Counted from the stretch's first letter, positions 8,612 to 64,000 are shown. The stretch: DNA of 64,000 bases from an uncultured Planctomycetaceae bacterium (GCA_963813715.1 CAWFAK010000018.1:35526-99525), one strand, 5' to 3'. Program-made: numbers and translations. The notes: generated from the sequence alone by a model not told the origin.

Positions 8612-10185
8612 TTACCGCGCCGTGGCCGGCTCGAGCAACGAGCGACCCGTCATTTCGGCCGGCTGCGGGATGCCCAACAGGTGCAGCATGGTCGGGGCGA
8701 CGTCCGCCAAAATGCCCGGATGCAGCTTCCACTGGTTCTGGTCGGCGCCGACGTAAAAGATTTCGACCGGGAACGTGGTGTGCGCGGTGTGCGGCTGGCC
8801 GTTGGCCTCGCGCATTTTTTCGGCGTTGCCGTGATCGGCCGTGATCAGGGCGACGCCGCCGATCGCGCGGAGCACGTCGACCACCTCGCCCACGCACGCA
8901 TCGGTCGTCTCCACCGCCTTGATGGCGGCCGGAATGCTCCCCGTGTGTCCGACCATGTCCGGATTGGCATAATTGCAGATCACGACGTCATATTGCCGCG
9001 TTTCGAGGCGGCGGATCAGCTCGGCGGTCAACTCGGCCGCGCTCATCTCGGGCTTGAGATCGTAGGTCGCCACTTTGGGCGACGGGATGAGCGCGCGATC
9101 CTCGCCCGAGTTCGGTTCTTCCACGCCGCCGTTAAAGAAGAAGGTGACGTGTGCGTATTTTTCGGTCTCGGCAATTCGCAGTTGCTTGAGACCGATCGCG
9201 GCGACCACCTGGCCCAGGAGGTTCTGCATCGATTCGGGCGGAAAAACCGTCGGCAGGTGAAACGTGTCCTTATATTCGGTCATGCAGACGAACTCGACCT
9301 TGGGCCGCCGCGCCGGGCGAAGCCGGTGAAGTCGTCCTGCATGAAGGCCTGCGTCAACTCGCGGGCCCGGTCGGCGCGAAAGTTGTAGAACAAGATCCCG
9401 TCACCGTCACGAACGAGCGGTTGGTTCGCGTCGCCGCCCGGCGAGCGAATTACCGTGGGCAGGATGAATTCGTCGGTCTTGCCGTTGGTGTACGACTCTT
9501 CGATCGCCTGCACGGCGTCGGGTCGTGCGACGCCCTCGCCCGCGACCATCGCGTTGTAAGCGGCTGCGATGCGGTCCCAGCGGTTATCGCGGTCCATCGC
9601 ATAGTAGCGGCCCATGACGGTGGCGATCGTCCCCACGCCGAGCTGCGTCATTCGCTGTTCGAGCTGTTGCAGATATCGCACACCCGCCGTTGGCGACGTG
9701 TCGCGGCCGTCGATAAAGCAGTGGACGTAAACCTCCGCGATGCCGTTGCGCTTGGCCAGTTCGAGACAGGCGTACAAGTGATCGATATGGCTGTGCACGC
9801 CCCCGTCGGAGCACAACCCCATCACATGCAGCCGTCCGCCGCGCGACTTCAAATTGCCGACGAGCGTTTTGAGCACGGGGGCTTCGAAGAATTGGCCCTC
9901 GCGGATCGACTTAGAGATGCGGGTGAGGCTCTGGTAGACGATGCGGCCCGCCCCGAGGTTCAAATGCCCGACCTCGGAATTCCCCATTTGACCGGCCGGC
10001 AGTCCGACTGCTTCGCCACCGGGGTCGAGCGTGGTGTGCGGGCACGCGGCACGCAGGCCGTCGTTCACCGGCGTACGGGCCATCAGCGTGGCGTCGGCCT
10101 CTTTCTCGATCCCCGCGCGGCCGGCCGGGTTGAGCCCCCAACCGTCCCGAATGATGAGCACCACCGGCCGATGCGCCAATTTCAC
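8612..10185 (-). CDS. gpmI: 2,3-bisphosphoglycerate-independent phosphoglycerate mutase (frameshift near 9300)
   Basis: [58 protein letters not shown]. Confidence 0.96.
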
Positions 10186-51246: not shown

Positions 51247-52153
51247 ATGTTTCCCGCTCGCACCGGCTTCGAGCAGGAATACCCATTCGCGTCGCATGAA
51301 TTAAAGTTCGACGGGCTGCGCTATCACTACGTTGACGAAGGCTCCGGCCCGACGTTGCTCTTCGTCCATGGCAACCCGACCTGGAGCTTCGCCTTTCGCA
51401 ACCTGATCAAGGCGCTCTCGCCCAGCTACCGGGTGCTGGCCGTCGACCATATCGGCTGCGGTTTTTCCGACAAACCGCAGAACTATCCGTACCGACCTGG
51501 CGCAACACGTCGCCAACCTCGAACGGTTTGTCACCGAACTGGACCTCCGCGACATCACGCTCTTCGCCCACGATTGGGGCGGAGCCATTGGGATGGGAGT
51601 GGCCACGCGACTGCCCGAGCGATTCTCGCGGTTCGTGCTCTTCAATACGGCCGCCTTTCGTTCGCAGCGGATCCCGCTCCGGATCGCCGTCTGCCGCATT
51701 CCGGGGCTCGGCGCGATCGGCGTGCGCGGTCTCAACCTGTTTTCGCGGGCCGCGCTGCGAATGGCGGTCGCTCGACCTGATCGGCTGACGCCGGCGGTCC
51801 GCCGCGGATACCTGGCTCCTTATGGCAACTGGCACGATCGCGTCGCCGTGCTTCGCTTTGTTGCAGGACATTCCGCTCTCACCCACGCATCCGAGTTACG
51901 ACACGCTCGTCGCGATCGAAGAAGGACTTCCCAAGCTGCGCGATCGACCCATGCTTTTTGTCTGGGGCGAACGCGACTGGTGCTTCACGACGGAATTCCT
52001 GGACGAATTCCTGCGACGATTTCCCAACGCCGAAACGCTCCGGTTGCCGGACGCGGGACATTACGTGTTCGAGGACGCGGTTGAGCCGATTCTGCGCGCG
52101 TCCAGGAATTTCTCACGCGGCACACGGCGACGGTGGGAATCGCGCCGGAATGA
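51247..52153 (+). CDS. Alpha/beta hydrolase, haloalkane dehalogenase/OleB-like (frameshifted)
   Basis: [40 protein letters not shown]. Confidence 0.85.
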
Positions 52154-52387
52154 TCCGCGCAACACGCGGCGCGCGAAGCATTTTCGCTCGAAATTCTCCG
52201 CGGTTCGCCGCAAGACGCTGGGAGTGTTCATTTTGGACTCCACTTGATACATTCGCGCTCTTCTCGTGCGGCTTGCCATCGACGGCCGCGTTGCCTAGAG
52301 TTTTTCACGTCGCCTCTCGGCGGTCTTGTCGCTCACATGTCGGGTGGCCGATCCATGTCACCGCCGGCCGCGTCTTCGGGCGTTCGG

Positions 52388-54157: not shown

Positions 54158-54189
54158 GCTACTCCTGGCGAGCGGCGGGTGTCAGCCCG

Positions 54190-54377
54190 CCGGTGGGTCA
54201 AGTCTGTAAGAAGCTATAGACCCGCCGTCGATTTTACGCGGATTTACAGTCCGCGAGGGAAGCTCTGGCCGCTTTCGTCGTCCCTCCGCAGCGTTGGCAC
54301 TCCAAAAACAAAAAAACCAGACTGAGCAGATGCCCTGTCTGGTTCCAAAATTTCGCGGTGTGCCGGGTCGTTACGGA
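54190..54377 (+). repeat. Direct repeat copy 1 (element end / att region)
   Basis: Near-identical to 63809-64000, starting CCGGTGGGTCAAGTCTGTAAGAAGCTATAGACC. Confidence 0.95.
54304..54344 (-). terminator. Intrinsic terminator downstream of the recombinase gene
   Basis: Minus strand CCAGACAGGGCA-TC-TGCTCAGTCTGG followed by TTTTTTTGTTTTT; conserved in repeat copy 2. Confidence 0.75.
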
Positions 54378-55484
54378 GTAACCGGCTGAGCCTTGTGGGT
54401 CACAGCGGAGCGTGGGCAACGCGGCAGTTTGATTCCCGCGTAAAAATCTCTCTTCGTTGAATGTCGGGAACGGGTTAATCCCGTGACCGACTGGAATGCC
54501 TTAGAGAACTCAACGCGAGACAGGGCAGCGTGTCCGTTGGCTTGGCAGAATGCGAAGTAAGCCAGATAGAGAGGCCGAGCAAAAACGCGGCAGGTCGCGT
54601 CTCGTTGCATCTCCACGCTCGCAGAGCGTGTCAACAAACCGCTCAATTGACTGAGGTTTGGTTGGGCGTTGTTCCCTGCCGGAGTTTTTCCCTTTGTCCT
54701 TCATGTACGCGAGCAACAGCGAGCGTATGTTGTGTTCCTTCACTGCTCGCCCGCGATTTAATTCCGTGTGTCCCTCCGCACGAATCGTGCGGCAGATGTC
54801 CCGGTAACTGTGTCCGCTTTCGTGCAGAGCGAGGATTCGAGTTTTGGTGGCGTCGCTCACAACGAACCGATTAACCATGCCTCCTCGTCGCCCATTATGT
54901 TTTGCAGTGAAGCAAGTCATCACGGCCATCACATCGTAGGCGAGTTCCTCGCTTTCGGTGCGTTCCTTGTCCTCATCGGTGAGACCTTCGGTTGGTCGAG
55001 TCTCCACAATTTCCACTCCCATTCTTCAGCAAAGCCTATAAACAAGAGAACGACAATTCCTGCTGATGCGGTCTCCAAACTCACAAAGGACTCGCTTGCA
55101 CTCGTCCTTCCAAAATGGAGTCAATAGTCGCACAAAGCCTTTGCGTTCGTGGTTGAGCCCCGATCCCTGTTTCCTGAATGGTCACAGTGGTTCGCCGGGG
55201 ATAGTGCTCGCCGCGAAGCGTTCCAACCGTTCAACCTGTCGAGTGAGATTTCCCTCTTTGCGTTGTTTGTCTGTGCTCACCCGAGCATAAATCACGGTCT
55301 GGCGTTCGCCGGCTCCCGCGTCGTCAGTCGCGTCATCGACGTTGAGACCAAGAGCACGCACCAAGGAATCGCGTTTAACGAGCCGATGCCCGCCGACGGT
55401 TCGCTCAGTCTCCACGGTGCCGCTGTTGCAGTAGTACCGCAGCAACTCGACGCTCACGCCTGCTAAGCGTGCCGCATCTTTCAT
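54371..55484 (-). CDS. IS607-TnpA-like serine recombinase with C-terminal extension (frameshifted)
   Basis: MerR-like HTH (AARLAGVSVELLRYY...TVGGHR), VIYARVSTDKQ catalytic motif, GSGLNHERKG, DRISR, EELAYDVMAVMTCFTAKHNGRR, then two extra domains. Confidence 0.85.
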
Positions 55485-56379
55485 TCGGAGCAGCGGCCGC
55501 TGAAGGGACAGAAGCAACAGAATTGCAGACCGGGCGTGCGGAGGCAAGAATGGGAGCCAGCATGACCCGTACCTTAGTACGGGGTTGTGTGAGGCTCGCC
55601 GTTGTGGTATCAACACTTCGGTCAGGCGTTTTCTCCCTTCCGGGAGAGCGGGCGATAGCCCAGCTATTTATAGATTAAATCGGTCCGGTTCCTAACAGTC
55701 AATACCCTCCGCACTATTTTTATAAATATCTATACCAGCACTCGCGTTATGTTCCAGGCGTTGGGCTCAACAGCGGCCGGCTTGCTATAACTAGAACAGT
55801 ACCACTATGGCATAGCACGTAAGTCGAACACGCCTAAAGGGCATGAATGGTTCGCAATATTTGGCAGATGTAGGCGTTCGCCCACAATCATCTGTTTTAT
55901 AGTTCATCATACGGCTCCATTCCCTCTCTTCATCTCTTCGCCATGCGGCCTCTATTAGCGTTTAAGGTGCCGCCGTTTTTTTGTCAGGCCACGATAACCG
56001 AAGGTATACTCATCAACACGAGCCGCACGGCGCTTGACCCCCACCTGAAGGCCATATGCCATGCCTATATGCTTTTCCAGTCTGGCTCAACAAAACGAGC
56101 GTGCTCACGCACGCCTAAAATGGGAAAACCTAAGAGTGAGTTGTCTAGGGAGTCCAACGGCTGATTGCGTTGGCTCTGTTCTTGCAGCGGCAACAGCGAG
56201 TAATTTTGCCGGCTGCAACGTTGTGCAGCAGCGCGTGAACCACTCGCCGCCCGCATTTGCAGCACTTGTAAGAACAGCACCGTTTGCCGTTCACTGTCAG
56301 AATGGCGATTATCTTAATCAGTGCCCGCCCATCACGGTCACAGACCGTGTGTCCGGAGGCAAAATGCTTGGTTGGATAC

Positions 56380-56607
56380 TTAATCATGTCGGCACCGTCG
56401 CTTTCGCTTCAAACGCGGGAGCCTGAGTCGCACGTCCAGCTCCTCCAGCATGTCGAGTACGCTGTATTCCTCAAGCACGCACTCACACTCCATCCGCCCC
56501 TTCGTTGCCCTGCTTATTAAGAGAGCCAAGCCACCACGGATTTGCCGAATGTCTCCGCTTCGCAGCAATGCAGCAAGCGGAGGCGTTAAATGTTGTCTTA
56601 TCCTCAC
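56380..56607 (-). CDS. Small hypothetical protein
   Basis: 75 aa ORF abutting the upstream ORF. Confidence 0.4.
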   Translation of the reverse strand: MRIRQHLTPPLAALLRSGDIRQIRGGLALLISRATKGRMECECVLEEYSVLDMLEELDVRLRLPRLKRKRRCRHD

Positions 56608-56978
56608 TAGCGTGCCCCCTTCACAACACCGTTATTGCGTCCCAACATTGACGCGAACGAGGAGCTAACCAAATCTGCAACCGCCGGAAAGGTCTCCAAT
56701 ACGGTCAGGTCGTGTTCAGCGGCGTTTACAAAGTCGATGTCGTCTAACAGACTGAATGAGTCGTTGTCATTGAGTTTGCAGCGCCTGCATCCAAGCACGG
56801 CGCCGTCATTGTAGAGCTTCGCAACAACCGCAAAATACAGCTTGCCGTTCAGCTTGTAAGAGACCTTGGAATCAACCGGCGGGTTCATGCCCTCATAACA
56901 ATCTGTCGCTTCCCGCACGTATTCGTCGGCGGCCTGCTCCGCAGGCAGCGGTACACGTCGCACCGTTCCCATCGGCAC
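56607..56978 (-). CDS. Hypothetical protein (5' end uncertain)
   Basis: 123 aa ORF in the minus-strand gene run. Confidence 0.5.
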   Translation of the reverse strand: MPMGTVRRVPLPAEQAADEYVREATDCYEGMNPPVDSKVSYKLNGKLYFAVVAKLYNDGAVLGCRRCKLNDNDSFSLLDDIDFVNAAEHDLTVLETFPAVADLVSSSFASMLGRNNGVVKGAR

Positions 56979-57108
56979 GAACTTGCGTTTAGCGCGACCT
57001 TTGGTTTCGGCTGGGCGGGTTGAGTTTAGCCAATTGCCTGACTGCTCGCTTGCGTCAGATTGCCCTCTGCTTGCCTTAGCCTGCTGCGCCTCTGGTCCAG
57101 CCGTACCG

Positions 57109-57483
57109 TTAAGCCAACGGCTGGCCTCGAAGCCTGCGTCCGAAATCGGATAAAACTTTTGTTGTGCTTTCCGCCAAGGTTACGAGCTCAGCGGTGCTGC
57201 GGGCCGGCTTTTCGACAGGCTTACGGTCTGGTTTGTCGTATACGGAATACACGTCGAATTCGGTGCCCCACGAAGATTCTTTGCCAGTCATTAAGGTTGT
57301 TGCCCCTTTGTGAATAAGTTGAATGATTTCATCGCCGCTGAGTCTTCTGCTCAGAGCACATTGTTCCTCTGCCGCGAAAGCCTTGTAATATTCATCCGGC
57401 GAAGCCCAATGAACAAGGTCATCGGTGCCAGGTGTTGTGCGGCGAGAGAGTAAGGACATAAGCGCGTCATCTATTGATGGCAT
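57109..57483 (-). CDS. Hypothetical protein
   Basis: 124 aa ATG ORF preceded by GGAGG RBS. Confidence 0.6.
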   Translation of the reverse strand: MPSIDDALMSLLSRRTTPGTDDLVHWASPDEYYKAFAAEEQCALSRRLSGDEIIQLIHKGATTLMTGKESSWGTEFDVYSVYDKPDRKPVEKPARSTAELVTLAESTTKVLSDFGRRLRGQPLA

Positions 57484-57502
57484 TTAGCCTCCGATGTATT
57501 GT

Positions 57503-57742
57503 GGCCGCTGGACGGATAATGTGACATCCAGCGGCCTATTGTGGTGGAAACCCAAGACATTCCACCAAACGTCGTTTGTGTAAAGCCCGGCCAGAAGCCC
57601 TATGAGACGTCAAAACCTTCTGACCGGGAAGGGAGCGTCCGCGAAGTAGTTCGCGGTGCCACAGTACCCCGGCTTTGGGAGATTACATGACAAAAGAACC
57701 ACAGCCGGTTTCTGTAAGTTAGGTGCGGGACAACAGTCCCGC
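57503..57742 (-). other. Cluster of six consecutive hairpins (structured RNA or origin candidate)
   Basis: Inverted repeats at 57503-57536, 57542-57567, 57586-57628, 57639-57656, 57669-57708, 57725-57742. Confidence 0.6.
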
Positions 57743-58217
57743 TATATAGTCATACACCTTTTGCGAGAATCGGCGGGCGATAAAAGGCCATCCTCATTGG
57801 GCTGATTCAGCAAATACATTCGCCCAACCGTGTGAGGACCAAAGCCTCAATGCTCTCGTAAGTGTGTCCGGGCAGACCGCAGTAAAGATTGAGTGCGTCC
57901 GCGAAGACAGCCTGGCGCGTCCGTTCGCCGATTGAGTGCGAGCCGCACGCGTCCTCCTAAATACGATTTATAATCGCGGGCATCATCGGTCAGGTTTATA
58001 TTCTCGTTAACAGCGGGGGCACCCTATCCTGCTCAGAATGAATGAATGGTTAGAAGTGAGATTGTAGGAGAGTGCTCAACTCCGCCGGATTTGAGTGTGT
58101 TTGGTTTTTACATTTTTCTCAGCCGAAGGCTGAGTGCCTTTCAATGCAAGTCTCCGGTCGCCAGACCAATAGGTTTCATTCTCTTTAGTAGGTAACTCAT
58201 TCTTATAGTAGGTCGCC

Positions 58218-58281
58218 CCGGAAATTCCGGGTCTAAAGCTCCGGAAAATCCGGGTCTAATCAGCCGGTGTTTCCGGGTCTA
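58218..58281. repeat. Three iteron-like repeats with 23 bp period
   Basis: CCGGAAATTCCGGGTCTA, CCGGAAAATCCGGGTCTA, CCGGTGTTTCCGGGTCTA at 58218, 58241, 58264. Confidence 0.85.
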
Positions 58282-58740
58282 TTATTTGGGAAATAGACGC
58301 AAGTCCCCTTTACGCTGCCATTCCCTGAGTTGAGCAGCACCCCAGCGGAGCTTGTCTACCATGTACACGTCGTCGGCCAACTCCCAAGCGACCTGTTCGG
58401 CAATGTCAAGGAACGCCAGCGAGTAAAGCTGATACCGTGCCGGTTTCCTGCCTTTGCCTCCGCTCGTGCGAGTCGCCAGACCACATTTGTTCAAGGCTTT
58501 AATAGACTCAGTGATTGTGTCGTGGCTGCATCCGCTCATCGGTCCTAAGCTGTCGCTCACGAACTTGGCTTTGTAGTTCTCTTTAGATGTGCAAGCGAAC
58601 GCCAGCGCCGCATAAACCTTTGCGGCCGATGCGTTGCAGCGATTGTTTGCGACCATGCCCGCAACGTGCTGTGCGATGGTCTGTTCAAGTAGCGGCGTGC
58701 GTTTAACGAACGTCATTCCGTGCGTCGTGCGTTTCGTCAC
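58282..58740 (-). CDS. Winged-helix protein, putative replication initiator
   Basis: AAKVYAAL...SLGPMSGCSHDTITESIKALNKCGLATR...GRKPARYQL resembles phage/plasmid initiator wHTH; adjacent iterons. Confidence 0.65.
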   Translation of the reverse strand: MTKRTTHGMTFVKRTPLLEQTIAQHVAGMVANNRCNASAAKVYAALAFACTSKENYKAKFVSDSLGPMSGCSHDTITESIKALNKCGLATRTSGGKGRKPARYQLYSLAFLDIAEQVAWELADDVYMVDKLRWGAAQLREWQRKGDLRLFPK

Positions 58741-58973
58741 TAAAAAGAGCGACGCGAACAGTCGTGCCGCCCGCTTGTTGAACTTCGCCGCATAGGTCTC
58801 CGGCGAGATGCCCCATTGGTCCCAGTAATGCGTTTGTCCGCGAGTGCGTCCCGCGTCGTCTCAACGCTGTCTTTGGTTAAGCCTTCGCCGTGAGCGTCAA
58901 AGTTGAGTTCGTCCGCGAACATCTCGTCAAGGAACTCGTCTACGTCTCTGGTAATGCCTGAAATAACTGCCAT
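58740..58973 (-). CDS. Small hypothetical protein
   Basis: 77 aa ORF abutting the wHTH gene. Confidence 0.45.
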   Translation of the reverse strand: MAVISGITRDVDEFLDEMFADELNFDAHGEGLTKDSVETTRDALADKRITGTNGASRRRPMRRSSTSGRHDCSRRSF

Positions 58974-59298
58974 ATGTCACCGTTTCTAATTTCTCGTTTC
59001 ATAGCCCTTGTCGTGTCCTCCTAAAATGTTCCCCAGTACAAACGACAACACCTCGTGAACCGATGCTGCGGCTCAAAAGGTGTGGTCGCGAAACTAGTTG
59101 TTATGGTGAAATAACAGCCTGTATTGATTTACAACCCTTTCGTCTCAGCATCGACGAATGTGTGCGTGTATTATCATCCACCCTATTATACGCGCGTTTC
59201 CGGGTTTTTTCTCGCCCGGCGGCACATTTTCCAAGAAATAGTTAAGCGGGCAACTTTAGCTAATCCGTGCTAAGCAGGCAGGTTTGGCTGGTACGCGT

Positions 59299-59907
59299 TT
59301 ATCGCCAGCACTCGTCTGCTCGTCCAATCCCAAGCCCCTCTGGACCGCTTGTCGTCCAACCGCATGGAAGCAAATCAAGCCGGCTGAAGACTGAGCCAAT
59401 CGTGTAAACGTCCATAAAGCCGTGATGCACGATGAAGGGCAGATAGCCGTTGAACAGCATGACGCAATTCTGTCGGGCCTCAGTGAGCATGAAATCTGCG
59501 GCCCTTTCCTTCAGTTGCTCGCTCCGGCGGAGCGAGTAGAGCGAAAAGTCGCCCATGTATCGCACAACGTCGGTGCCCGGTTCAATTGCGGCGACGAAAG
59601 TGTGCCGGTCACTCGAAAAGATGAAGCAGTCCAGCTCGGGGAAGAGATTCCGCATGATGTAAAGCATTGGGCAAGCGAGCTGCTTGCACATTAGGTCGCA
59701 CGACGTCTGCCAATAATCCAGCTTCCGAATGTCGCCGAACGGAAGGCCACGCTGCGGGTCAACGAGCTGGCACGACCAGTTGAGCAGCCATTCCAGGCGC
59801 GGGAACGGGATGACGTCGCGTTCGATGAGTGCTTTAACGTCCGCAAAGCGAACAGACCAATCAACCAGCTCGCACTTATCGAAGACAAGGTTTTGTCGTT
59901 TTCTCAT
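59299..59907 (-). CDS. Hypothetical protein
   Basis: 202 aa ATG ORF overlapping the upstream stop (ATGA). Confidence 0.6.
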   Translation of the reverse strand: MRKRQNLVFDKCELVDWSVRFADVKALIERDVIPFPRLEWLLNWSCQLVDPQRGLPFGDIRKLDYWQTSCDLMCKQLACPMLYIMRNLFPELDCFIFSSDRHTFVAAIEPGTDVVRYMGDFSLYSLRRSEQLKERAADFMLTEARQNCVMLFNGYLPFIVHHGFMDVYTIGSVFSRLDLLPCGWTTSGPEGLGIGRADECWR

Positions 59908-60441
59908 CGGGGAGCGTACTCGCGACCCAACAGGAATTGCCCCAGATAGCGGAGCTGCAAATAGGCGACGTCCAAATAAGACTTGCCAGCGGTCTCCGCG
60001 TCGGCCAGCAACCAGTCAACCGGATAAAGCTCCTCCCAAAGCGTGTGCCACTTCTCTATGTCCGTGGCGCTCACTTGTCGGAACCACGCTGAACAACTGG
60101 CCGCGTCGGTTGGATGAAGCCCATGTGATTGACGAGCGAATCCGCGATTTCGCACTTCATGTAGCCGTGCTGTTTAACAAAGCGCCGATTTGCTCGAAAG
60201 AGGGCTGCGGTGGCTCGTTAAGCGATACTGCGACGACCCGATAGGTGTCCGCGCCACAATCTCAACGAGCTTTTCACGGACAAGCTCTTTTATCGCGGCC
60301 GTAATCTCAGTCAGCTTTAAAGGCGTGTGCTGCACAATGGTGGAGTGGTCGGCCACAAGCTCGCACCTGTCATCGCATGCCAATAATGAGCCAAGCCAGC
60401 AAGCTGGCTGCGTTCTTGGATAGTCTGTGTATAGTTAGCAT
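59904..60441 (-). CDS. Hypothetical winged-helix-like protein (probably one frameshifted gene)
   Basis: Fragments 60174..60383 (TPLKLTEITAAIKELVREKLVE...SSQYRL) and 59904..60155; ATG at 60441 with RBS. Confidence 0.4.
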
Positions 60442-60470
60442 AGTGTCTCTCCGCTCGAATAGATGTCGCC

Positions 60471-60525
60471 ATAGTATTATACACCAAATCTGACGAAATT
60501 CGTTAAATCTGGTGTATAAGACTAT
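60471..60525. promoter_or_regulatory. 55 bp imperfect palindrome between divergent genes
   Basis: ATAGTATTATACACCAAATCTGACGAA-A-TTCGTTAAATCTGGTGTATAAGACTAT; TATAAT on minus and TATAAG on plus in the arms. Confidence 0.7.
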
Positions 60526-60564
60526 GTACCCTTCACGTGCGTTCTATTCGGAGAAACAAGCAAT

Positions 60565-60783
60565 ATGCACACTTTAAAGATGGTCAAGTTCAGGGGCAGT
60601 ATGTGGACTGTCGCCGATTTAACTAAGTCGGTGTTCAACGTCCACGGTCTCGCTTCTCACACTGTGTTCGCCAGGTTGTTCAGAATGAAATGGACACCTT
60701 TGCAGGCAATCGCCTTGCCGCTTCGCGTCGGGCCACGACCAGAGATACAGCCCCTTGGAGCTGGCGTTGATTTGCAGCAATAA
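60565..60783 (+). CDS. Small putative DNA-binding protein
   Basis: VKFRGSMWTVADL...TVFARLFRMKWTPLQAIALP resembles the small HTH module appended to phage HNH endonucleases; GGAG RBS. Confidence 0.55.
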   Translation: MHTLKMVKFRGSMWTVADLTKSVFNVHGLASHTVFARLFRMKWTPLQAIALPLRVGPRPEIQPLGAGVDLQQ

Positions 60784-61258
60784 GCATCTGACCAGTCAGG
60801 AACTCAGCGCGTTAACCAACATGACGCCGGATGAGCGGAAAGCGACTTTATCTGCCGCCGGCGTGGGCCAATGACGATGCCGACATACGAAATAAATAAG
60901 AGGAGAAGCCACAAAATGATTCGGATTTCAAATGGCCTGCGGCACATAAACACGGACGTGCGTTTCAGACGTCCGAATAAAAGCGATTCAACACAGGTCA
61001 TCCTGTGCGTGCTGAGAGGGTCATCTGCCGACCTGCTCCAAGGCCACACGGAAGCCTAAGGTGAAGAGGCGGGTGCCTGGTCGAACTAGCGGAGCTGAGG
61101 AAGGTGAGTTCGGGGGACCGCAGATGCGCCTGGGGAGCCCGAGAACGAAACAAGAGACCGTTGGAGGATGACGAACAGACCAGCAAGGCTTGAAAGGTGC
61201 CTCGGAATCCTGTCAAATGGCGGTACGGCTCGCCGGGCTTTCGGCAAGGGGAGAATAA

Positions 61259-62164
61259 GTGAGAGTTGCGCTCGCCTTTCTATTGCTTTCACATCTCGCC
61301 CTCGCGGCCGATTCGAGGCAGGTTGCTCCCGAAAGCGATTCGCGACTTGCAAAACTCTCGGGCGAGCAGTCGCAGCAAATCGCCGTCAATGGCGTGACGC
61401 TCACGTATTACGCGAACAAGGGAGGCGGCTATACGTTTTTGAATGCTGACCAAATCCTGTTTTACTCACTGCCGTACTCTCCGACGACTTATAAATTTGA
61501 ACACGTAGTCGCATCCCCATTCGGCCTGCGCTCTATCACGTTGGAAAACGGACGTTCCAATTATTGGGTCGGATAGAATGCCGTTGGGCGAGCAAACGGT
61601 GTATCTTACGCGAATGAACGAGGTTGGCGATATTACGCATACCATATTGCGAGAGGATATCCAAATTGCCGTCTTATCTGCCAACACGTTCGTTACGTGC
61701 AACAACGGGCGAGAGCCCAAATTCGACGCCTTGTTAAAGGCAGTCCGGCCGATATTGGAAAAGCCGACGAATGCCAAGCCGCTCGTGCCGGCAGAGCAGC
61801 ATTTGTCCGAGCTATTTAAAAACGCCCCGGAACCGATTCAAGGCTTGCCGCAAGGTAATAATCTGGGCGGGATGGGCATGGGCGGCCGCGGCGGGGTCCT
61901 TCCGCGGCCGGTAGGCGAGCACGCAAGGCAGGCGGTGCCCCCAAACAGGCCCCGGCGCCGAAACCAGCCGCGAGGCAAGACCCTGAACGCAAATTCGCCG
62001 GCGTACTGTCGAACGCGAAGAATCTTATCAACGCCAAACTCTATGCAGCCGCGGGCAAGAGTCTTAAGCGAATCGTCGACGAAATGCCCGGAACGAAAGT
62101 CGCGGAAGAGGCCAAGACACTCCTGGATTCGCTTCCGCCGCAAAAGAGCGCCGCGTTTGAATGA
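61259..62164 (+). CDS. Secreted hypothetical protein with TPR-like C-terminus (frameshifted)
   Basis: Signal MRVALAFLLLSHLALA; last frame LSNAKNLINAKLYAAAGKSLKRIVDEMPGTKVAEEAKTLL. Confidence 0.5.
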
Positions 62165-62455
62165 CCCTTCGCGGCGAGGCACCAAAACCCGAGCTCCGGG
62201 TGCAAAGTGTCGACTCTGGTGGGCTGCGAGTGTCGGGCTTTCCGTTAGTGCGGCAACGCCGCAGTCCCTTGCGATACATCGAGGCAAAGGACAAGACATG
62301 CTCTTCGATGACATAGTTGCTAAGGTTCGGGCCGGCGCTCTGACTGAAATTCCTGGGAAGTACTTGCGGAAAAAACGGGGTATTGCGGTTGAGCCGAAGG
62401 AAATACGAGATGAACGTCGAACCGCGAGAACCCGCCCAGAATTGAGAGCGGAGGA

Positions 62456-62656
62456 TTAAGCCCCTCCGCGTTTTCTTTTTATAGGGGTCTGATTCGCGAC
62501 TCCTATAACATCCTTGCTCGCGCCTGGTACTCCGGTTCCGGTCGTGGGGCCTTGCTTTCCCTTCGCCGTCGCCTTGCTCTTGGTTTGTTTTGCCAATTGT
62601 TTCTTCACGGTCTTCACAATCTTCTTATCAATTGCCTTCCTGATTTCGTCTGCCAT
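62456..62656 (-). CDS. Small Lys-rich protein
   Basis: MADEIRKAIDKKIVKTVKKQLAK with purine-rich RBS. Confidence 0.5.
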   Translation of the reverse strand: MADEIRKAIDKKIVKTVKKQLAKQTKSKATAKGKQGPTTGTGVPGASKDVIGVANQTPIKRKRGGA

Positions 62657-62775
62657 CCTTTTCTCCCGAGGTTTGGTCACGGAACGCGCTCATTAACGCT
62701 CCTGCGCCGATGTAACGCAACGTGGGCGGCAAGTCCGAGCGGGAAGAATGAGACGCGGAACAGAGGAACGAAATG

Positions 62776-63474
62776 TTAAATGCTTTTAGTGCTCGATGCC
62801 TGGGCATTTCGGCCGGACACCATACGTCGCAGTCCGAAGCAGGCAATCCCGCCTGTCAGCAGCATCACAATACTTGACGGTTCCGGCGTGACGCTAAACG
62901 GTCCATCGTACTCAACAAAGTAACCGTAAGCGTTGTTGTTCTGCGTCACCTGAAAACCGGAGTCCTGGTCATTGTTCCATGTGAAGGTCGGCCCGTTTCC
63001 GAAATCACGAGTCCAGTAGTGGACGTACTGCCAAAGCGGGGTTCCTTGAAAGTTCGGCTCTCCCGGAGCCCAATTCGTGTAAGAAACTGGGGCTCCGTTC
63101 ACCCACTGAAAATCGGAAGTCTGAGTGGGGGCCGACAGTCCAATCCAGGCGTATTTGGAATTCGTGGGGCCGACGCCGTTGGCGGCTGGGGCGTTCCCAT
63201 TGTCGAAAAGCTGGCTCGCAAAATTGGCCTGGAGAAAATTGTTGATGTCCGCCGACGTCACTACAGCCAAGTGCCCCTGGACGCCCATGTAAGTCGAAGC
63301 GTTGGCCGCGGCGTTCGCTGCCGTCCACGAAAAACTGTTCGCAGACGAGGTCGGCATAACTAAGTCGTAGTAGTCACCGTTTCCACTGTCCAGAATCGGT
63401 GTTGCGTCTGCACGCTTCGCGGAAACGAAACACAATGACAGTGCCATGCCGCAAAAAATCGCCGACTGTCTCAT
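62776..63474 (-). CDS. PEP-CTERM surface protein with C-type lectin-like domain
   Basis: Signal peptide; FSWTAANAAA...GHLAVVTS...AWIGLS...FQWVNG...YTNWAPGEPN...WND...GYFVEY; C-terminal TPEPSS-TM-RR. Confidence 0.9.
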   Translation of the reverse strand: MRQSAIFCGMALSLCFVSAKRADATPILDSGNGDYYDLVMPTSSANSFSWTAANAAANASTYMGVQGHLAVVTSADINNFLQANFASQLFDNGNAPAANGVGPTNSKYAWIGLSAPTQTSDFQWVNGAPVSYTNWAPGEPNFQGTPLWQYVHYWTRDFGNGPTFTWNNDQDSGFQVTQNNNAYGYFVEYDGPFSVTPEPSSIVMLLTGGIACFGLRRMVSGRNAQASSTKSI

Positions 63475-63808
63475 TGCGCGGCTCTCCTCTTCGCATTGCC
63501 CTCTGGCCTGGAAGCGCCATTTGAGCTCCAGTACCAACGAAATGCAACACTTTTTGTCGGCTGGGCGACGAGATTGGACGAGAAAACGATAGTTATGGAT
63601 AGTTCAGAATAGTGACTAAATTCACCAAATACCTATTTTTATAGGCCGACGGGCGGTTTTCCGCCAGCAGTGTCCGCGAAAAAATGCCGACTACCGAAAG
63701 AAATCCTCAGTCTCACACTGGCCGCTCGCTGTCGGGGGCCAACAGCATTGATTTCAGCAGGAAAACCCGTCAGCCGGAACGGCCGAAGGATTCTAGGATT
63801 GTACGCAC

Positions 63809-64000
63809 CCGGTGGGTCAAGTCTGTAAGAAGCTATAGACCGTCCGTCGATTTTCGATCGGATTTCATCAGTCCGCGAGGGAAGCTCTGGCCGCTTTCGT
63901 CGTCCCTCCGCAGCGTTGGCACTCCAAAAAACAAAAAAACCAGACTGAGCAGGTGCCCTGTCTGGTTCCAAAATTTCGCGGTGTGCCGGCTCGTTACGGA
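63809..64000 (+). repeat. Direct repeat copy 2 (runs off window end; probable start of a second related element)
   Basis: Near-identical to 54190-54377, including the terminator and the recombinase stop codon. Confidence 0.93.

Follow-up and report, generated by a model that had tools for sequence, protein, structure and literature searches.

Does the low-GC segment downstream of pckG in a 64,000-nucleotide stretch of DNA from an uncultured Planctomycetaceae bacterium (GCA_963813715.1, CAWFAK010000018.1:35526-99525; hereafter the window) represent one mobile element, and which part of it is the unit that moves? A sequence-only reading had described a 9.6-kb replicative element, mobilised by an IS607-type serine recombinase and apparently repeated in tandem. 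Our analysis points to a smaller unit. We consider it likely that the mobile unit is an insertion sequence (IS) of 1.3–1.5 kb, IS607-like in its working, lacking TnpB and encoding a recombinase with two added C-terminal DNA-binding domains, and that a plasmid-like circle became cointegrated at this element, which targets repetitive extragenic palindromic (REP) sequences; this estimate applies to the explanation as a whole, cointegrate included. The IS has defined ends, contains one gene and has inserted repeatedly at a short core in a fixed REP position. The sequence-only reading missed what is most unusual here, namely the extended C-terminus of the recombinase and the specificity of its insertion for REP targets.

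The locus has the order REP-[IS copy A]-8.1-kb cargo-[IS copy B]-REP and spans 11,132 bp in total (9,811 + 1,321 bp) downstream of pckG. The left member of an inverted REP pair (54167..54194, plus strand; 51 REP-core matches in the genome) is the insertion target and contains the crossover core CCGGT (54190-54194). Copy A (54190..55689, minus strand) measures 1,495 bp from core to core with ACCGG at both ends, and is followed by the cargo (55690..63808), 8,119 bp long with the same core at both ends, and by the right end of copy B (63809..64000, minus strand). The window ends where contig C18 ends, the break falling inside copy B; on the reverse strand of contig C16, copy B resumes with no base missing and runs on for 1,326 bp. 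This C16 sequence matches positions 54378-55689 of copy A at 89% and includes the whole second recombinase gene; about 110 bp past the copy B match it runs through the inverted REP, the rest of the pair, into host DNA of 62–69% GC with an SDR-like gene that lies directly 3' of pckG in 6 of 11 congeners. In the congener G002 (92% identical), an empty site was found at base resolution: the REP pair is uninterrupted, the left and right junctions of the locus overlap in it at CCGGTG, and the ACCGG-type core, single there, is present once at each junction of the locus.

These results change the earlier picture in several respects. The direct repeat of about 190 bp thought to bound the unit does start at 54190 and 63809 (spacing 9,619–9,623), but since C16 continues copy B the true repeat is about 1.5 kb long and holds a whole recombinase gene. 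The sibling element predicted to begin at 63809 does provide a recombinase paralogue beyond position 64000, as had been anticipated, but it is only an IS, without cargo; no second 9.6-kb unit exists, and the proposed tandem array gives way to an IS-cargo-IS arrangement within one REP site. The compositional distinctness of the unit was borne out (GC 53.8% in the cargo vs 63.4% in the host part of the window), and G002 supplies an empty site of the kind that was to be looked for downstream of pckG in relatives. The 9.6-kb unit is one possible excision product rather than a demonstrated unit.

Every IS copy encodes a single gene, that of the IS607-type serine recombinase, without TnpB, in units of 1.30–1.50 kb. 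Cargo-free copies of 1,469–1,478 bp, with the same two ends and ACCGG at start and end, are present at loci L002, L003, L004 and L030, and the homology of copy A with L002, L003 and copy B stops at the cores. A second subfamily, at 30–33% protein identity, consists of 1.30–1.38-kb units with a CCGG core in G003, G007, G009 and G000:C17, the last being a contig of the source genome (G000). By profile search, the family occurs in 6 of the 12 genomes of the genus at 9 sites (2 pairs, 6 complete single copies and 1 truncated copy), so that 7 of the 9 hold a single copy with neither a second IS nor enclosed cargo; each genome carries one to three copies. Farther out it is rare (3 of 401 genomes of the class, the source genome included). 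The core is ACCGG or CCGG in 11 of 12 copies and CA in the distant member G227. Terminal inverted repeats were not detected, no 7-mer being shared near the termini, and a search for the short direct repeats that IS607 elements have near the left end gave only three repeated 6-mers in the first 160 bp of copy A. A terminator-like hairpin with a T-run follows the recombinase stop codon (54304..54343, minus strand); it was seen in the sequence and its position is kept in 5 aligned copies, but a promoter/terminator scan of the region, which performed at chance level, did not list it.

Relatives outside the genus were also sought. Among 80 loci kept from a metagenome scan, one full-length recombinase relative was found. 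Matches from a phylum search (9 of 401 genomes) turned out to be mostly ordinary short IS607 proteins. The recombinase, the winged helix-turn-helix (wHTH) protein of the cargo, the right end and the iteron had no relative in viral contigs, and the full-length long recombinase was found neither in phages (none of 34 matching records covers 80%) nor in plasmids (none of 130 matching records). Two further copies deserve mention. The third element of the source genome (G000:C17:676929-678270; L027:9929-11275) is intact, belongs to the second subfamily and lies in a second repeat family with other transposase genes after it; the low-GC DNA following it was considered as its cargo and rejected, being DNA of another transposase. 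The truncated copy, L208 (G009:C214), is a second-subfamily copy cut by another transposase, its right end standing beside a repeat-like stretch containing CCGG.

Insertion is site-selective. In the close subfamily, each of the 5 mapped insertions has used an identical ACCGG within a single REP family, a position that accounts for 60 of the 23,251 ACCGG sites in the source genome (0.26%), this count serving as a proxy for the other genomes. In the second subfamily, 3 of 4 mapped sites (G003, G009 and G000:C17) lie in another repeat, which has 16 matches in the source genome, and the fourth (G007) is within a palindromic stretch; these site counts leave out the G129 member, whose ends are unmapped. 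The REP hairpin survives beside the right end of the IS after insertion, so that a second IS can insert there. The source genome, in which no TnpB was found, gave eight matches to Y1_Tnp, some perhaps from REP-associated tyrosine transposases that maintain the target repeats.

The recombinase gene of copy A (54371..55563, minus strand) encodes, in order, a MerR/Xis-like wHTH, a catalytic domain, a three-helix HTH and an RFX/P4-OBD-like wHTH, and intact proteins in all 7 close relatives have 360–392 aa. The placing of the MerR-type domain before the serine catalytic domain is that of IS607, and the NCBIfam profile NF033518 matched P0001 with 119.6 bits (cut-off 110), P0006 with 109.6 and the G003 protein with 93, in each case over the first 200 residues. 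R68 and S70 are invariant in 51 aligned proteins, and YARVST is present in both copies of the locus. In a structure model built from 51 sequences (pLDDT 91), i) the N-terminal head is Xis/MerR-like (Z 6.9), ii) the catalytic domain is closest to the IS607 TnpA structure 3lhk (Z 18.0, root mean square deviation (rmsd) 3.5, 129 residues aligned), iii) residues 205-267 fold into a three-helix domain where large serine integrases have their recombinase domain, and iv) residues 278-353 form a winged helix of the RFX/P4-origin-binding type (1dp7, Z 9.5, rmsd 2.0 over 72 residues). Helix E is split by a GRRG-type turn, as in IS607. The earlier assignment as an IS607-TnpA-like enzyme is upheld. Long forms (at least 330 aa) make up 103 of the 150 top representative matches, each a separate 50%-identity cluster, and 21 of 26 short forms fall into one clade without long members (support 0.986 in a quick tree of the first 250 residues). 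In some long forms of 420–480 aa (P0039, P0045, P0053, P0059 and others) the last winged-helix domain apparently occurs twice. No TnpB (PF07282) match was obtained in the source genome, which is 82.6% complete, while the control matched in 8 of 14 cases; no Pfam Recombinase or zinc ribbon domain appeared among the best 5 matches per protein in one scan of 54 proteins.

Joining the two ends of an IS copy brings a -35 box of the TTGAC/TTGCC type to 17–18 bp before a -10-like box, giving a sigma-70-like arrangement. In copy A, the right-end box is TTGACC (54196..54201, minus strand), and it takes end joining for this box to form a promoter together with the left end. End-joined copies reach a promoter score of at least 9/12 in 10 of 12 cases, as against 220 of 20,000 random junctions, and integrated left junctions do so in 3 of 12. 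The joint promoter is found in both subfamilies and in G227, with different sequences. A promoter is reportedly formed at the circle joint of Tn4451 as well. Upstream of the recombinase start, a leader hairpin (55594..55627, minus strand) is marked by covariation: across the 12 copies, 12 of its 13 pairs have changed on both sides, a value above all 500 shuffles and all slid controls; in copy A itself the hairpin is weak (z 0.28), no better than shuffles. Its most likely role is cis-regulation of recombinase expression. It had no Rfam match, and a function as guide RNA was not supported, since the loops do not track the targets by eye.

The cargo probably was a circle, because its joined ends build a promoter aimed at a gene within it. 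On the minus strand, a -35 box TTGACT (55697..55702) at one end and a -10 box TACAAT (63798..63803) at the other would be separated by 17 bp on closure and would face the C-type lectin/PEP-CTERM surface protein gene (62776..63474, minus strand). This junction scores 10/12, a value reached by 30 of 20,000 random junctions, and provides moderate evidence that the two cargo ends were once joined. The cargo also encodes a 230-aa winged-helix protein (58282..58973, minus strand), a candidate replication initiator with one frame change near 58824 and with near-identical intact relatives (P0158 and P0159). It gave weak PHROG matches to replication initiators (E 0.003–0.03) and HTH_36-type clusters in the Atlas at 0.96; it was not found in 300 genomes of the class. 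Directly after its stop codon, an AT-rich stretch is followed by three 23-bp direct repeats resembling iterons (58165..58286); a 3 × 23-bp repeat, at 58218, arose in none of 30 shuffles. A wHTH gene, direct repeats and an AT-rich stretch together make up the layout of an iteron origin. Each of the three repeats (58218-58281) holds CCGG, the same tetramer as in the core, and in two of them it occurs twice, forming a near-palindrome; this may be due to chance. A non-coding hairpin block (57560..58000; z -3.91, 0 of 100 shuffles, no Rfam match) is a candidate origin or single-strand-origin region.

Much of what had been reported for this interior holds: the wHTH gene with iterons, the hairpin block, the palindrome between divergent open reading frames (ORFs) and the surface-protein gene are all present, and neither a capsid nor a conjugation gene matched among the scanned cargo ORFs, some of which are split and most of which lack an assigned function, just as no TnpB matched in the genome. 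The proposal that an IS607-type enzyme serves as integrase of a plasmid-like element survives in part: the enzyme is tied to integration without TnpB, but it belongs to a self-contained 1.5-kb IS. The cargo genes for the wHTH protein and for a 258-aa protein recur at 90–96% identity in other assemblies and both occur on one ENA contig of 18,859 bp; contigs holding cargo relatives measure 18,859, 124,499, 15,236 and 20,373 bp. Four other cargo genes are singletons at 90%, and four look-ups were absent from the collection. The cargo core is thus shared, and its surface genes appear variable. Packaging-interference, partition and relaxase genes were not found among the cargo ORFs.

A second paired case is present in the one-contig genome G003, where two second-subfamily copies, 99.8% identical, flank 16 kb of low-GC DNA in one repeat site. 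This cargo (L026:1-6821 and L025:11450-20000) encodes a GIY-YIG nuclease, a GYF_2/zinc-ribbon protein, a few proteins with phage-family matches and many unassigned ORFs; one ORF of 326 aa looks SIR2-like by eye and has no Pfam match. A kinship with the 8.1-kb cargo was considered but is not supported, as a likeness among small ORFs failed and the sole significant shared gene belongs to a family common across the genus. For an IS present in only one to three copies in each genome, two pairs among nine sites point to the paired layout as a probable regular product of the family.

The following sequence of events would account for these features. The IS would excise as a circle whose joined ends form the recombinase promoter, and the added C-terminal domains of the enzyme would read the REP target. 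A plasmid-like circle of the iteron type, 8.1 kb in size and linearised at the ACCGG that it carried, would lie between two IS variants in one REP site, forming a cointegrate. It could have arisen by either of two routes: a) a second IS circle would insert at the surviving REP hairpin beside the first copy, and the resulting joint of right end and left end, the same as the circle joint, would act as donor joint for an incoming core-bearing circle; or b) a circle already carrying an IS copy would undergo homologous recombination with the resident one and so fuse with it. Between copies A and B, identity is 88.9% overall (166 of 1,494 aligned columns differ), 66–73% in the first 300 columns and 90–99% after; leader and N-terminus differ, with a resemblance to other natural variants, and all variants are mosaic. 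Both routes would give the same product, and because of the mosaicism this identity pattern would fit either. Through the four cores, each IS could leave singly, the entire 11.1 kb could leave with restoration of the REP, or a recombinase-free cargo circle could be freed, in which the promoter facing the lectin/PEP-CTERM gene would be rebuilt.

Several points weigh against this cointegrate. Synteny, rather than reads, is the basis of the C18/C16 join. Because the 12 copies are related, the promoter count overstates their independence; the cargo promoter was recognised only post hoc, and when one real arm is kept, 114 or 769 of 20,000 junctions reach its score. The assignment of the wHTH protein as an initiator is weak, as it has no Pfam or NCBIfam match and no match among 72,556 plasmid records. 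The cargo of G003 has no iterons and no junction promoter, and in G227 the IS lies, as read by eye, at a CA core inside a gene and not in a REP. No circle junction or end joint is present in the contigs of one low-depth soil run, which is no evidence against circles; the same run, from one study only, covers 24 of 30 bins and contains pieces of the cargo, not linked to one another, with 0, 8 and 16 differences. Both recombinase genes of the locus are interrupted by several indels, some in compensating pairs, and more densely than the host flanks, which show about 2 gaps per kb relative to G002; two cargo genes have one frame change each relative to intact relatives of 90–96% identity. Assembly error is a plausible source of the recombinase indels, and the locus may alternatively be dead through decay of the recombinase. 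A host gene of the alpha/beta-hydrolase type in the window (51247-52247) is broken up among three frames, which points to assembly indels.

A bolder extension of the same reading, which we put forward tentatively and think rather less likely than its opposite, is that tandem ISs at a REP hairpin form a capture platform: the REP-anchored donor joint would, like an integron, take up and release recombinase-free circles with nothing but the short core, the 8.1-kb cargo would replicate as a circle, depend on the joint for integration and have its lectin gene on only when excised, and the enzyme would be a compact, site-selective serine integrase bridging IS607 transposases and large serine recombinases.

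It is unlikely that the cargo and copy A instead form one 9.6-kb integrative element with its own integrase, in tandem beside a cargo-less sibling B, the solo copies being minimal derivatives. Such an element would draw support from the -35 box at the cargo end, which pairs with a -10-like box inside the left end of A to give the integrated copy a 10/12 promoter, from the lack of any other integrase on the contig (no tyrosine integrase was found on C18), from the distinctness of A and B as variants, and from the close recombinase P0002 and the cargo-gene relative P0164, each of which is on a 124,499-bp ENA contig, so that the two probably share it. However, the left end and core of copy A are complete exactly where the homology of solo copies stops, 7 of the 9 genus sites are single copies, a lone recombinase with this cargo behind it was found at no site, and the G003 cargo has nothing in common with this one apart from a single gene family that is common in the genus. 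A composite transposon, in which two independent IS insertions in a larger plasmid or phage trapped the 8.1 kb, after which the outermost ends carried all 11.1 kb to the REP, seems distinctly improbable here. It agrees with the two direct copies flanking the cargo and with the clean empty site matching the outer ends, and it may be right for G003, where the cargo lacks a junction promoter and iterons and has phage-like and nuclease genes; but it needs two non-REP insertions 8 kb apart when 5 of 5 chromosomal sites of the subfamily are in REPs, and it leaves unexplained why the cargo ends complete one promoter. Only one site is known for the whole 11.1-kb IS-cargo-IS unit. That copy B is a mis-assembled duplicate of A is hardly credible, despite the contig break inside it and the many indels of the assembly, as the two differ at 166 columns with a leader and N-terminus like those of natural variants, the outer junctions match the empty site of G002, and the same layout recurs in the one-contig genome G003.

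The remaining cargo features are as follows. Three small ORFs of 75, 121–123 and 124 aa (56380..57483, minus strand) have no useful Pfam or PHROG match. The 258-aa protein (59299..60074, minus strand; one frame change) has a transglutaminase-like lead only, from a weak language-model likeness (0.88–0.90) to viral DUF553/transglutaminase-like clusters. A palindrome with 28-nt arms (60470..60526) between divergent ORFs is a candidate operator; on its right, a 72-aa ORF (60565..60783, plus strand) has no relative in 150 genomes of the family. An 80-bp segment at 61001-61080 matches G000:C3:73123-73202 and a place in G006 at 79–83% and has no Rfam match. A gene for a secreted protein, present in pieces (61259..62164, plus strand), represents a family that is common where the genomes of the genus have low-GC patches and that (61259-61576; L134-L140, L142) forms genus-wide tandem arrays of units of about 550 bp with recurring flanks, in a cassette-like manner. 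A further ORF (62456..62656, minus strand) is 66 aa long and lysine-rich.

Members of the IS607 family (IS607, IS1535, ISC1926 and ISC1904) likewise have an N-terminal MerR-type winged helix followed by a serine catalytic domain, as passages of PMC6188088 and PMC4058570 describe. They share with the new element the absence of terminal inverted repeats and of target duplication and the exchange at a short GG-containing core, and the closest structures (3lhk, 3ilx, 6dgc and 6dgb) are theirs. In contrast, the new element lacks the usual downstream tnpB, which is not needed for transposition, its protein has 360–392 aa rather than about 200 aa ending after helix E, and it targets REP sites instead of inserting promiscuously. 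Canonical IS607 is credited with only a (G)GG preference in the part of PMC6188088 available and with minimal target specificity in that of PMC4058570, and how these enzymes pick their target is treated as an open question in the same passages of both. Because TnpB, the short protein and promiscuous targeting all fail, the element was not filed as a canonical member.

Large serine recombinases (Bxb1, phiC31, SPbeta and TnpX of Tn4451) also have a helical DNA-binding domain after helix E and insert site-selectively, and the structures 9dxd, 9iu2 and 4bqq align across model residues 60-270, with rmsd above 10 Å. Unlike them, the new enzyme ends in an RFX/P4-OBD-type winged helix, and the position of its catalytic domain, which is not at the N-terminus, excludes it from the large serine recombinases. 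Insertion into host REP palindromes at a fixed point is also a property of IS621, ISPpu9, ISPpu10, ISPa11, IS1397 and ISKpn1, but these belong to the IS3, IS110, IS4, IS256 and IS5 families (PMC1525189), whereas the new element uses a serine recombinase; the passages of PMC1525189 on REP-targeting ISs mention neither IS607 nor serine. In IS30 tandem dimers, the joint of IS ends reacts with a target to give cointegrates, and the IS can insert beside its own ends (PMC9333248). IS30 relies on DDE chemistry and inverted repeats, whereas conservative serine exchange at a core could make the steps scarless and reversible here. The cargo resembles iteron-type theta plasmids in its winged-helix gene, direct repeats and AT-rich stretch, but has no recognised Rep family or plasmid match. 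The 'S-Core_IS607' islands of TIGER, whose only integrase is IS607-like, are assigned in the passages available of PMC12424338 to a site-promiscuous clade mobilising transposon-like elements, with no long form, REP targeting or paired layout in those passages. The main-text passages of two recombinase surveys (PMC8989519 and PMC10083194), supplements aside, do not describe the long form. No description of a long-form, TnpB-less, REP-targeting IS607-like clade was found in the openly accessible literature, ISfinder aside, and this small kind of jumping gene is apparently undescribed.

Against an IS607 background of almost no target choice, a broad long-form clade has lost TnpB and gained two further DNA-binding domains. 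Its two subfamilies share 33% identity and each use a different host repeat, which makes target recognition testable by deletion and swapping of domains, and with the ends, core, targets and junction promoter mapped, assays can be built at once. If the explanation is true, the family would provide a scarless, site-selective integrase of 365 aa and a route for Planctomycetota chromosomes to take up small circles, suggesting a way in which bacteria may capture and release foreign DNA circles.

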